Below, piece after piece: positions 15,155 to 56,546 of a stretch of 64,000 nucleotides of DNA (positions within the stretch are counted from its first letter, which is position 1; the number at the start of each line of letters is the position of its first letter). Origin of the DNA: Escherichia coli (lineage in GTDB: Bacteria > Pseudomonadota > Gammaproteobacteria > Enterobacterales > Enterobacteriaceae); the NCBI RefSeq assembly GCF_003790525.1, contig NZ_CP033635.1; one strand, 5' to 3'. A program made the translations under genes and the position numbers. Under the pieces are notes generated by a model, which searched no databases, was not told where the DNA came from, and saw nothing but the letters and a program-made list of their open reading frames with translations.

Positions 15155-15238
15155 TTAATTTCGATTATTTTTCCCGGATGGAAAATTCTTAGAAACCGAT
15201 CACATACAGCTGCATTTATTAAGGTTATCATCCGTTTC

Positions 15239-15325
15239 GCTGAAAAACATAACCCATAAAATGCTAGCTGTACCAGGAACCACCTCCTTAGCCTGTGTAA
15301 TCTCCCTTACACGGGCTTATTTTTT
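15239..15325 (+). ncRNA. cyaR: CyaR (RyeE) Hfq-dependent sRNA
   Basis: GCTGAAAAACATAACCCATAAAATGCTAGCTGTACCAGGAACCACCTCCTTAGCCTGTGTAATCTCCCTTACACGGGCTTATTTTTT matches the CyaR sequence as remembered; ends in a hairpin (GTGTAATCTCCCTTACAC) plus T-run; a -10-like TATCAT lies about 8 bp upstream. Confidence 0.8.
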
Positions 15326-33543: not shown

Positions 33544-34371
33544 TTAAGGCGTTTCTTTAATCCCATCAACGAATCCCTGCAACTCCTCCACCGTGCCATT
33601 AAACACATTAAAATCCACCGGACCATTGATGCCATCTACCTGTCCACGGTCGGAATGCTGCCAGAAGCGCCAGGCCATTCCGTCATTGTCCGGACGACGT
33701 TGATAATAGTGAGCCACCCACCACGGATATTCATTAAAATAGCCCGCCAGATTCGTGTGATAAAAAACGGCTCCTGAGTAAATAATCGGCTTTTTTCCCG
33801 TGCGTTTTTCTACCATTTTTAGCCACTGACTTACCCGCTTGCGTAATTCTTTTGCCGATAATTTTCCCCGTTCTTCTACGTCCAGCACGGCAGGGAAATC
33901 GCCTTGTGAGAAATCCACCGTTTGCAGAAATAATCGCGCCTGAACTGAAGCGGATACCGACGGGGAGAAATAATGATACGCCCCACGCAGCATGCCATTT
34001 TCGCGGCTTAGTTGCCAGTTACGCGAAAAATAGGGGTCCACCAGCTTTTCGCCTTCCGTCGCCTTAATAAAAGCAAACTGTAAGCGGATACCGTTGTCGC
34101 GCATTTTTGCCACCCGCTGCCAGTCGATCCGCTCCTGCCAGCGCGAAACATCTATTCCGTGAATGGTATAACTGGCAGGAATGCGAATTGCGAAAGATTT
34201 AACCGGGCGATAACCGTAGAAGTGGATGTAGTCTTTAATCTGAACTGCTGTCGAATAGAAAAAATTCACCGTCTGACGCGGATAAATTGCAATGATGGAA
34301 ATTAGCCCAAGAACGCATAATAAAGCGGTGAATTTTTTTCGACTGGTGATTCTCAGCTGCATTGGTTTCAT
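33544..34371 (-). CDS. yegX: Glycoside hydrolase family 25 (lysozyme-like) protein YegX (275 aa)
   Basis: N-terminal TM/signal segment followed by a GH25-like domain (GIDVSRWQ...). Confidence 0.8.
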   Translation of the reverse strand: MKPMQLRITSRKKFTALLCVLGLISIIAIYPRQTVNFFYSTAVQIKDYIHFYGYRPVKSFAIRIPASYTIHGIDVSRWQERIDWQRVAKMRDNGIRLQFAFIKATEGEKLVDPYFSRNWQLSRENGMLRGAYHYFSPSVSASVQARLFLQTVDFSQGDFPAVLDVEERGKLSAKELRKRVSQWLKMVEKRTGKKPIIYSGAVFYHTNLAGYFNEYPWWVAHYYQRRPDNDGMAWRFWQHSDRGQVDGINGPVDFNVFNGTVEELQGFVDGIKETP

Positions 34372-34426: not shown

Positions 34427-35227
34427 TCACCACCAGGCGTGGAAGTGGTGAACCGGACCAATACCGTGACCAACTTCCAGCATGTCGGCCTGGGCTAACG
34501 CCGATGAAAGCCAGCTTTTTGCCTCCTGTACGGTGTCAGCCCAGTTTGTATGGCGCGGGCGTAGTGCAGCCAACGCCGCAGAGAGTGTACAACCAGTGCC
34601 GTGGGTGTTTTTGGTCATAATGCGCGGTGCGGTAAACCGTTGTTCACCCTCGCGAGTAAACAGCCAGTCCGGGCTTTGCTCATCATCCAGATGACCACCT
34701 TTCATTAGCACTGCGCCACAGCCCATCGCCAACAGCGATCGCCCTTGTTCCAGCATTTCCTGTTCGTTGCGCGCGTGTGGCGCGTCGAGCAAGGCGGCAG
34801 CTTCGGGCAAGTTTGGCGTTATTAATGAAACCTGTGGCAATAATCGACTGCGCAGCGTAGCAACCGCCGAAGGTGAAAGCAGCGGATCGCCGCTTTTTGC
34901 CAGCATAACAGTGTCGAGTACCACGTTTTGGATCTGATAACGTTGCAACCGTTCTGCCACCGCTTCAACAATATCGGTTTCCGCCAACATACCGATTTTA
35001 GTGGTATCGATTCGCACATCGCTGAACACCGAATCGAGCTGGGCGGCGACAAAATCAGGCTCAATGCGATACACCGACTGTACGCCACGGGTATTTTGCG
35101 CCACCAGTGCAGTAATAACTGAGCAACCATAAGCGCCAAGTGCCGAGAAGGTTTTAAGATCGGCCTGAATCCCCGCACCACCACTCGGATCAGTACCGGC
35201 AATCGTCAGAGCGTTAATTCGTTTCAT
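34427..35227 (-). CDS. thiD: Hydroxymethylpyrimidine/phosphomethylpyrimidine kinase ThiD (266 aa)
   Basis: [31 protein letters not shown]..., the ThiD/PdxK family N-terminus. Confidence 0.9.
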
Positions 35228-36012
35228 GCCTGCACCTCCTGCGTCAATTGCCAGAGCGCATCAAGGAAATGTGGAACAAAACTGCCTGGCCCCTCGCTTC
35301 TGGCGACAGCGCGTTCTCCGGCTTGTTTCATCCAGTGACAGGCAGATGCGACATTTTCCAGCATATCGCCTGGTAAGGCACAACAGGCAGCGACAACCGC
35401 CGATAATGCACAGCCAGTTCCTACCACTTTGGTCATTAACGGATCGCCACCGTGAATACCAATGATACGATGTCCATCGGTAACATAATCCACCTCGCCA
35501 GTGACCACGACGATTGCGCCAGTTTCCCGTGCCAGTGTTTGTGCAGCGGGTATCGCGTTAGCTGCGGCGTCAGTGGTATCCACTCCCCGTCCGCCATTAG
35601 CAATGCCAGCTAATGCCATGATTTCCGAAGCATTACCACGTATCGCTGCCGGTTTAAAAGATAAAAGTTCATGACAAAAATGGCGGCGATAATCGAGCGC
35701 ACCCACCGCTACTGGATCAAGCGTCCAGGGTGTTTGAGAGCTTTTTGCTTGCTCAACGGCAGCACGCATCGCCTGTGCGCGTGGCTGCGTCAGTGTGCCA
35801 ACGTTAATCAACAAGGCACTGGCGATAGCCGCAAACTGACTGGCCTCTTCGGTTTCGATAACCATCGCTGGCGATGCACCGAGCGCCAGCAAGGTATTGG
35901 CGGTAAAGGTTTGCACCACATCATTGGTCATGCAGTGCACAAGAGGGGAATGTTGGTGAAAAAGGTGTAACGCGTGCGCAGATTGCGCTGAACCCAGCAG
36001 GTCGACTTGCAT
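35224..36012 (-). CDS. thiM: Hydroxyethylthiazole kinase ThiM (262 aa)
   Basis: 262-aa ORF overlapping the thiD start; a TPP riboswitch lies immediately upstream. Confidence 0.9.
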
Positions 36013-36039
36013 AGTTTGCTCCTGCCATAACGTGAAGAA

Positions 36040-36145
36040 GCAATGACCTGGTGGTCCGTGACTTCCCTACGCTGGCATTATCCAGATCAGGTGATACGGG
36101 TATTTCTCAGCCTTCACGCAGAAGGGCACCCCGAGTCGTTTGGTT
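36040..36145 (-). ncRNA. TPP (thi-box) riboswitch in the thiMD leader; ends approximate
   Basis: Minus strand reads GGGGTGCCCTTCTGCGTGAAGGCTGAGAAATACCCGTATCACCTGATCTGGATAATGCCAGCGTAGGGAA, containing the conserved CTGAGA and ACCTGATCTGGATAATGCCAGCG elements of the thiM riboswitch. Confidence 0.85.
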
Positions 36146-36234
36146 GCGATGATAAATCGCAGAGGAGGATGGTAATGTCCAGCGCACGCGTTGTAAACGA
36201 GGAAAAACGGCAGTTTTACAATCGCGTTAATAAA

Positions 36235-36507
36235 TTATTTGATATATGAATCCAGCACCTTCAGAACGACATCCAGATCTTCTTCACGTTTTAGCTCATC
36301 CCCCTGGTGAACGATGTGTTCCGTCAGATGACCTTTAATCACTTCCCGCATCAGACCGTTTACCGCGCCACGGATAGCAGCAATCTGTTGTAAAACTGCA
36401 GCGCATTCGTGCGGCTCGTCGAGCATTTTCTTGAGCGCCACGACCTGGCCCTGAATCTTACTGGCACGCGCTTTCAGTTTCTGTTTATCACGGATTGTAT
36501 GAGACAT
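36235..36507 (-). CDS. rcnR: Ni/Co-responsive repressor RcnR (90 aa, RcnR/CsoR family)
   Basis: 90-aa [24 protein letters not shown]... divergent from rcnA. Confidence 0.9.
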
Positions 36508-36555
36508 GGCAACACCTGGTTAACAAGAATATGAAAAATCATAGCACTATTAATC

Positions 36556-36590
36556 TACTGGGGGGTAGTATCAGGTACTGGGGGGGAGTA
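36556..36590. promoter_or_regulatory. Tandem RcnR operator sites (TACT-G6/7-N-AGTA)
   Basis: TACTGGGGGGTAGTA (36556-36570) and TACTGGGGGGGAGTA (36576-36590) in the rcnR-rcnA intergenic region; matches the published RcnR recognition motif. Confidence 0.8.
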
Positions 36591-36627
36591 GAATCAGATT
36601 GCCGAATTAATACTAAGAATTATTATC

Positions 36628-37452
36628 ATGACCGAATTTACAACTCTTCTTCAGCAAGGAAACGCCTGGTTCTTCATCCCCAGCGCCATCTTACTTGGTG
36701 CGCTTCATGGCCTGGAACCAGGGCACTCAAAAACGATGATGGCGGCGTTTATCATCGCCATCAAAGGCACCATTAAACAGGCGGTGATGCTCGGACTGGC
36801 AGCAACCATTTCGCATACCGCGGTGGTCTGGTTGATTGCCTTTGGCGGGATGGTGATCAGTAAGCGCTTTACTGCTCAATCAGCAGAACCGTGGCTCCAG
36901 CTGATTTCCGCAGTGATCATTATTAGCACCGCGTTCTGGATGTTCTGGCGTACCTGGCGCGGCGAACGCAACTGGCTGGAGAATATGCACGGGCATGATT
37001 ATGAGCATCATCATCACGATCACGAAGATCACCACGACCATGGACATCATCACCATCACGAACATGGCGAGTATCAGGATGCCCATGCACGAGCCCATGC
37101 CAATGATATTAAACGACGCTTTGATGGTAGAGAGGTCACCAACTGGCAAATTTTGTTATTTGGCTTAACAGGTGGTCTTATCCCCTGTCCGGCAGCAATT
37201 ACCGTGCTGTTGATTTGCATTCAGTTGAAAGCCCTGACACTGGGCGCAACACTGGTCGTCAGTTTCAGCATTGGCCTGGCGTTAACGCTGGTCACCGTAG
37301 GCGTTGGCGCAGCAATCAGCGTTCAGCAGGTCGCAAAACGCTGGAGCGGATTTAACACTCTCGCTAAACGCGCCCCCTATTTTTCCAGTCTGTTGATTGG
37401 CTTAGTTGGTGTGTATATGGGCGTACATGGCTTCATGGGCATAATGCGATAA
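36628..37452 (+). CDS. rcnA: Nickel/cobalt efflux protein RcnA (274 aa) with His-rich loop
   Basis: Membrane protein with central loop HGHDYEHHHHDHEDHHDHGHHHHHEHGEYQDAHARAH. Confidence 0.9.
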   Translation: MTEFTTLLQQGNAWFFIPSAILLGALHGLEPGHSKTMMAAFIIAIKGTIKQAVMLGLAATISHTAVVWLIAFGGMVISKRFTAQSAEPWLQLISAVIIISTAFWMFWRTWRGERNWLENMHGHDYEHHHHDHEDHHDHGHHHHHEHGEYQDAHARAHANDIKRRFDGREVTNWQILLFGLTGGLIPCPAAITVLLICIQLKALTLGATLVVSFSIGLALTLVTVGVGAAISVQQVAKRWSGFNTLAKRAPYFSSLLIGLVGVYMGVHGFMGIMR

Positions 37453-37670
37453 CTCAATCCTTTAGGCTTGCATGTTATCTTCAGCCCAGGATGATTCTTA
37501 AATCAGCTATTTCCGCTGACTCTCTGCTCGCTAAGGATGCTTTTAGGGCATCCTTTCATTTACACTTTTTACGAAATCATGGGATCACTAACAAAATATC
37601 GCTTGTCAGTTATATTGTATGGCAGGAAAGATATGCGACTGATATTACAGATCCCCAAAGTGGAGAGTTT

Positions 37671-38009
37671 ATGACCATTAAAAATAAGATGTTGCTGGGT
37701 GTGCTTTTGCTGGTTACCAGTGCCGCCTGGGCCGCACCAGCCACCGCGGGTTCGACCAATACCTCGGGAATTTCTAAGTATGAGTTAAGTAGTTTCATTG
37801 CTGACTTTAAGCATTTCAAACCAGGTGATACCGTCCCAGAGATGTACCGCACCGATGAGTACAACATTAAGCAGTGGCAGTTACGTAACCTGCCCGCGCC
37901 TGATGCCGGGACGCACTGGACCTATATGGGTGGCGCGTACGTGTTGATCAGCGACACCGACGGTAAAATCATTAAAGCCTACGACGGTGAGATTTTTTAT
38001 CATCGCTAA
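37671..38009 (+). CDS. rcnB: Periplasmic protein RcnB/YohN (112 aa)
   Basis: ORF 37491-38009 trimmed to ATG at 37671 after GGAGAG; signal peptide MTIKNKMLLGVLLLVTSAAWA. Confidence 0.8.
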   Translation: MTIKNKMLLGVLLLVTSAAWAAPATAGSTNTSGISKYELSSFIADFKHFKPGDTVPEMYRTDEYNIKQWQLRNLPAPDAGTHWTYMGGAYVLISDTDGKIIKAYDGEIFYHR

Positions 38010-56348: not shown

Positions 56349-56516
56349 TATACTCTAAATAATTCAAATTGGTCCGATCCGGCGCAACGTCCCAATGGCC
56401 TGGATTATAAATCTCATTATCTTAATTGCAACGGGGTCCAGCCGTGGTTATAATTCGTTCGTTGGAACACGATGTTGCACAGGCTGTGGTGTTAGGCCTG
56501 AAAATAGTAAATAAAA

Positions 56517-56546
56517 GAACCTGCCTCACCAGCAGGTTTTTTTATT
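56517..56546 (+). terminator. Intrinsic terminator downstream of yehK
   Basis: CCTGC-CTCACCA-GCAGG followed by TTTTTTT. Confidence 0.75.

Follow-up and report, generated by a model that had tools for sequence, protein, structure and literature searches.

The E. coli K-12 thiM riboswitch is the RNA of the published aptamer–TPP crystal structures. Many Firmicutes TPP riboswitches use terminator-based attenuation, and the terminator-type leaders of this kind, such as the thi-box leaders of Bacillus, share their aptamer fold and thi-box core with the thiM RNA and join them to an intrinsic terminator/antiterminator platform. The K-12 thiM RNA has been the subject of probing and Rho studies (PMC1920254, PMC5499598). 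A change at G40–U46 upon TPP binding and a loss of control upon mutation of G100/G101 were reported, together with an ON/OFF model based on alternative pairing of an anti-Shine–Dalgarno (anti-SD) segment (PMC1920254). Translational repression by TPP has been demonstrated, including controls with the RBS mutation G142C and the AUG mutation U152A, and TPP was found to lower thiMD mRNA in a Rho-dependent manner (PMC5499598). The riboswitches of E. coli thiC/thiCEFSGH and thiB/tbpA belong to the same aptamer family, but lie at other loci and carry other expression platforms; the thiC and thiB leaders are reported to combine translational control with mRNA-level effects (PMC5234074, PMC11487190).

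Here we compare these systems with the thiM locus in a 64-kb window of E. coli DNA (the whole stretch analysed, 64,000 nucleotides of contig NZ_CP033635.1), for which an initial annotation had proposed a TPP riboswitch at 36040–36145, preceding thiMD. The genes and the element are listed below.

34427–35227, minus strand: thiD, HMP/HMP-P kinase, 266 aa (TIGR00097, 362 bits, cut-off 205; RefSeq)
35224–36012, minus strand: thiM, hydroxyethylthiazole kinase, 262 aa (TIGR00694, 341 bits, cut-off 256.4; NF006830, 332 bits; RefSeq)
36010–36012, minus strand: thiM start codon AUG (open reading frame list; NCBIfam thiM match beginning near the N-terminus; RefSeq CDS start)
36047–36143, minus strand: TPP riboswitch aptamer (full-length RF00059 match; RefSeq)

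The assignment of thiM and thiD as the downstream genes was confirmed by NCBIfam equivalog models and by RefSeq, with the start of thiD and the stop of thiM overlapping by 4 nt. Upstream of thiM and on the same strand lies rcnR (36507–36235), with rcnA divergent from it. In RefSeq, a "TPP riboswitch" is annotated between rcnR and thiM, giving the order rcnR / TPP riboswitch / thiM / thiD, and one PGAP record contains a 97-nt "TPP riboswitch" feature at the exactly equivalent position.

The minus strand was scanned with the RF00059 (TPP) covariance model, as had been suggested along with the initial annotation. A match was obtained at 36047–36143, within a few bases of the proposed limits, with a score of 71.2 bits, well above the gathering score of 54.3 (E = 2e-13). 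The alignment is untruncated and spans model positions 1–105 of 105, with all model helices (P1–P5 and the two sensor arms) aligned and only two non-canonical base pairs. P1 is formed by pairing of 36137–36134 with 36063–36060, and the element, like its K-12 counterpart, lacks the optional P3a insertion. The thi-box elements described as readable on the minus strand could be located, with the CUGAGA motif at 36110–36105 and the thi-box ACCUGAUCUGGAUAAUGCCAGCG at 36092–36070. In a scan of 35000–37500 on both strands with all 4227 Rfam families, TPP was the sole match, and when all 64 kb of the window were scanned at the gathering threshold, 36047–36143 was again the only RF00059 match, with no second TPP element. 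The aptamer is oriented in the sense direction on the strand of thiM, as expected for an element upstream of the thiM start codon: the covariance match ends 35 nt upstream of thiM, which is followed by thiD, and the 47 nt between the end of the P1 3' strand (36060) and the thiM ATG (36012) hold a short expression platform. The element has every testable defining feature of RF00059.

Comparison with K-12 MG1655 over thiD, thiM, the leader and rcnR revealed 13 substitutions, all of them within thiM and thiD at or below 35776. The sequence 36000–36240 is exactly that of MG1655, and no difference occurs anywhere in 35900–36240, a segment that takes in the promoter region, the aptamer, the expression platform and the first 37 codons of thiM, including the rut and termination region discussed below. 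The neighbours are also the same, with rcnR upstream and thiD downstream. The regulatory region is thus K-12 sequence in a non-K-12 strain, and we regard it as practically certain that the element is the known E. coli thiM TPP riboswitch. A 401-base segment spanning the element, with rcnR, riboswitch and thiM as the features annotated beneath it, matches 5424/5426 complete E. coli genomes, and the element itself is kept at at least 95% identity in nearly all of them. Direct and selective binding of TPP by the aptamer would be expected from its exact identity to the K-12 RNA (PMC1920254), and the present strain would by the same token be expected to behave as K-12 does. Published experiments with the identical sequence are our source for the binding of TPP, the change in structure, the repression of translation and the involvement of Rho.

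The elements of the leader are as follows, with SD denoting the Shine–Dalgarno sequence.

36192–36197, minus strand: promoter-like −35 hexamer TTTACA of thiM (consensus scan, 9/12 matches, 17-nt spacer)
36169–36174, minus strand: promoter-like −10 hexamer TACCAT of thiM (consensus scan; ends 7 nt upstream of the inferred transcription start)
36162, minus strand: inferred transcription start (+1), from the numbering of PMC5499598
36105–36110, minus strand: CUGAGA motif, pyrimidine-sensing side, its last four bases being the published G40–A43 (sequence)
36070–36092, minus strand: thi-box core ACCUGAUCUGGAUAAUGCCAGCG, P4/P5, pyrophosphate-sensing side (sequence)
36045–36056, minus strand: linker hairpin GACC-ACCA-GGUC between P1 and the anti-SD (predicted folding)
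36036–36043, minus strand: anti-SD UUGCUUCU, complementary to the SD and to the aptamer 3' strand (folding)
36016–36023, minus strand: Shine–Dalgarno AGGAG (36023–36019) plus three more paired bases, AGGAGCAA (folding)

The +1 position was placed at 36162 because G142 (RBS) of PMC5499598 then falls on 36021, a G of AGGAG, and U152 (AUG) on 36011, the U of AUG. The thiMD mRNA would accordingly have a 5' leader of 150 nt, and the position of the −35 hexamer of this sigma-70-like promoter is consistent with this start. Positions in the construct of PMC1920254 were converted to the window by the relation N = 36148 − coordinate. This numbering lands correctly on the SD (nt 126–130), on A84/A85/G86/U87 of P1, and on G100/G101, G40–U46 and G60/A61. 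G60/A61 correspond to 36088/36087, while G100/G101, the M4 positions, correspond to 36048/36047 and lie inside the linker hairpin. The loop between the anti-SD and the SD is 12 nt.

Two further features of this region were noted. A perfect 7-nt inverted repeat, TTGTAAA/TTTACAA (36191–36197 and 36215–36221, 17-nt spacer), lies between rcnR and thiM and shares bases with the thiM −35 hexamer. The repeat may represent a weak hairpin at the 3' end of rcnR or a protein site; a search for a T-run terminator found none here. A 68-aa antisense open reading frame (36043–36249, plus strand) runs across the whole riboswitch; it is absent from the RefSeq annotation, and was dismissed as a gene, being a mechanical open reading frame that is probably spurious.

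Folding of the leader gave both of the pairings needed for a switch. In the unconstrained fold (36150–35995), the anti-SD segment 36042–36031 pairs with the aptamer 3' strand 36071–36059, and the SD is about half accessible (mean unpaired probability 0.54 across the free ensemble). When the Rfam aptamer pairs were enforced, the SD unpaired probability fell to 0.011, with 8 contiguous base pairs formed by UUGCUUCU (36043–36036) and AGGAGCAA (36023–36016). The duplex energies of the two anti-SD pairings, with the SD and with the aptamer 3' strand, are −10.3 and −11.4 kcal/mol. These computed pairings are those of the ON/OFF model in the literature (PMC1920254). Compared with shuffled sequences, the leader showed no extra stability in its MFE (z = −0.47), a score that is uninformative here, since unusual stability is not required of a bistable RNA.

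In the mechanism that best accounts for the element, when TPP is scarce, the aptamer 3' half (36071–36059) would pair with the anti-SD (36043–36031), leaving the aptamer unable to close and the SD AGGAG (36023–36019) free, so that thiM would be translated; translation of thiD would follow that of thiM through the 4-nt overlap. When TPP is bound, the aptamer would close (P1 to P5) and release the anti-SD UUGCUUCU, and the 8-bp helix UUGCUUCU:AGGAGCAA would block ribosome loading. TPP-dependent translational repression in vivo has been published for the identical sequence (PMC5499598), and would be expected to operate at this locus.

Conservation of this arrangement was examined in orthologous leaders. 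The exact 23-mer ACCUGAUCUGGAUAAUGCCAGCG was present in at least 120 stretches (one genome per species) from many phyla, including Bacillota, and was followed by thiM in 17 among the matches listed. Since the orthologue set was chosen by this exact aptamer 23-mer, and is biased to identical P4/P5, it says nothing independent about the aptamer. The final set comprised 14 enterobacterial thiM leaders (15 sequences with the window), from Escherichia albertii, Citrobacter, Enterobacter, Superficieibacter, Mixta, Pantoea, Serratia and one unclassified proteobacterial MAG. All 15 sequences have in common the order aptamer, hairpin, CUUCU (UUUCU in one), loop, (A/G)GGAG and AUG. The linker hairpin is present in 15/15 with differing stem sequences, and the anti-SD core CUUCU is nearly invariant.

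The anti-SD:SD core was recovered in 15/15 sequences by RNAalifold. Analysis of the platform with MAFFT and RNAalifold gave only an invariant 5-bp core and one covarying loop-closing pair, most of the core pairs carrying no covariation signal because they are invariant across the orthologues. The placement of alignment gaps breaks the flanking pairs, and anchored helices were therefore counted by script instead. Two Enterobacter leaders (L094 and L050) were found to keep the 8-bp helix through a double change from U-A to C-G. In an alignment-free ensemble test of 16 leaders, blocking the aptamer clearly lowered SD accessibility in only three (the window, L041 and L085), while SD accessibility was unchanged or raised in most of the others. 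Nearest-neighbour modelling thus does not reproduce the switch in general, and outside E. coli no support was drawn from the test; its outcome is a limit of the modelling and not evidence against the experimentally established E. coli mechanism.

Three other accounts of the element were weighed against a functional riboswitch acting at more than one level. That the element is a chance resemblance, or a decayed and non-functional relic of a riboswitch, finds only the unremarkable MFE z-score (−0.47) in its favor, and is already refuted by the full-length covariance match (E = 2e-13), the near-universal conservation among complete E. coli genomes (at least 95% identity), the recurrence of the layout in 14 other Enterobacterales and the identity of the RNA to the experimentally validated one of K-12 MG1655; we give it next to no weight. 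Transcription attenuation of the Bacillus type, in which TPP would favor an intrinsic terminator hairpin in the leader, is the mode of many Firmicutes TPP riboswitches. However, a search for terminator-like hairpins followed by a U-run yielded zero candidates on either strand in 35900–36700, and the only stable helix after the aptamer ends in the SD, with no U-tract. The platform in the window hides the SD, in contrast to the terminator/antiterminator platform of the Firmicutes type, and the intrinsic terminator model was rejected as having a negligible probability.

The remaining alternative is purely translational control, in which TPP would only hide the SD, and the fall in thiMD mRNA would reflect passive decay without termination by Rho. 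The thiM riboswitch was first interpreted in this way (PMC1920254), and the initial annotation likewise described the element as a classic translational-control riboswitch. Translational control fits the locus, because a clear SD-sequestering platform is present and an intrinsic terminator is absent. As the whole of the control, however, it appears improbable in view of the following features downstream of the start codon.

35938–35972, minus strand: C-rich, G-poor rut-like stretch in early thiM (25-nt windows)
35901–35932, minus strand: published Rho-dependent termination sites +231, +237 and +262 (mapped from PMC5499598, transcription start at 36162)

The rut-like stretch extends from +191 to +225 (35972–35938) and contains 36% C and 4–8% G in 25-nt windows. 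Within it, Rho protects nt 201–210 (PMC5499598), corresponding to 35962–35953 in the window. Termination at +231, +237 and +262, within thiM codons 20–34, is triggered by repression of translation (PMC5499598); these sites correspond to 35932, 35926 and 35901, in a region identical to MG1655. The experiments with bicyclomycin and with the Rho R66S mutant were carried out on sequence identical to that in the window (PMC5499598). In K-12, bicyclomycin, or mutation of the C-rich region equivalent to 35972–35938, has been reported to relieve the TPP-dependent loss of a transcriptional thiM-lacZ fusion. A dependence of termination on Rho and on translation repression, as published for the identical sequence (PMC5499598), would thus be expected at this locus as well. 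In this account, the untranslated early thiM RNA would expose the C-rich, G-poor rut region at about 35972–35938, and Rho would then terminate transcription at about 35932–35901, lowering the level of the whole thiMD mRNA. Control of thiMD is not purely translational, because translation repression also triggers Rho-dependent termination and lowers thiMD mRNA (PMC5499598). The classic translational control of the initial annotation stands as the primary event, yet is incomplete, and the Rho layer is the sole addition to that interpretation.

Several other features of the window were observed away from the riboswitch. Three tandem SIB RNA (RF00113) antitoxin genes are present on the plus strand at 1071–1219, 1407–1549 and 1735–1877 (137–150 bits, spacing of about 330 nt). 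K-12 presumably has two SIB genes at this locus, sibA and sibB, and the present strain seems to carry an extra copy of the Ibs/Sib type I toxin–antitoxin relative to K-12. The plus strand also carries an OrzO-P RNA antitoxin (RF02083) at 56468–56543 (99.9 bits). The zorO-orzO type I toxin–antitoxin is a system of O157:H7 that is not known from K-12, and the presence of OrzO-P would fit a non-K-12 origin of the window. The CyaR/RyeE sRNA (RF00112) was found at 15237–15322 on the plus strand (100.7 bits), which we take to be its expected place near yegQ. Two open reading frames, at 33544–34371 (minus strand, 275 aa) and 37491–38009 (plus strand, 172 aa), gave no NCBIfam match. RefSeq has shorter CDSs at both positions, namely yegX, a GH25 glycoside hydrolase (819 nt, at 33544–34371), and rcnB (339 nt, at 37491–38009), so that the starts used for the two open reading frames are probably too far upstream.

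The riboswitch region is bordered or interrupted by other DNA in some complete E. coli genomes. In 473/5426 of them, O157:H7 among these, the interval from the rcnR stop to the position equivalent to 36146 of the window is filled by other DNA of about 2.27 kb, which replaces the K-12-type thiM promoter and transcription start and abuts the 5' edge of the aptamer. The replacement is represented by L122:231–2500 (E. coli O157:H7 Z892), equivalent to 36236–36147 of the window. It contains genes for an outer-membrane protein and a hypothetical protein, together with an HTH-like fragment on the opposite strand, and a search of the 300 nt upstream of the aptamer yielded no sigma-70-like site on the sense strand.

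In 15 genomes, a remnant with a truncated integrase (L126:20137–20679) and an IS3 interrupts the thi-box, parting the 5' portion of the aptamer from thiM; in one strain the remnant also contains DUF6453 and a second IS3. The interruption is represented by L123:3099–3200, L124:46241–46420 and L126:20050–22300, equivalent to 36067–36079 of the window. Riboswitch sequence stops at 36067 at the left junction and starts again at 36079 at the right one, so that 13 nt, AATGCCAGCGTAG, are present as a direct repeat. Within the remnant, about 125 nt from its right end, part of the thiM platform recurs in inverted orientation (36041–36015 of the window, 89% identity). These junctions raise the tentative and rather unlikely idea that mobile DNA in E. 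coli uses the DNA of the riboswitch as a target or boundary. If this were true, the riboswitch would be used as an attachment site, as tRNA genes are, and thiMD would be transcribed differently in the lineages with the replaced promoter or the thi-box remnant.

The role of the element as the thiM TPP riboswitch is already known and long established. In the present strain, as would be expected from the identity of its regulatory region with that of K-12, the element would couple intracellular TPP to the making of ThiM and ThiD, the kinases that salvage thiazole and pyrimidine.
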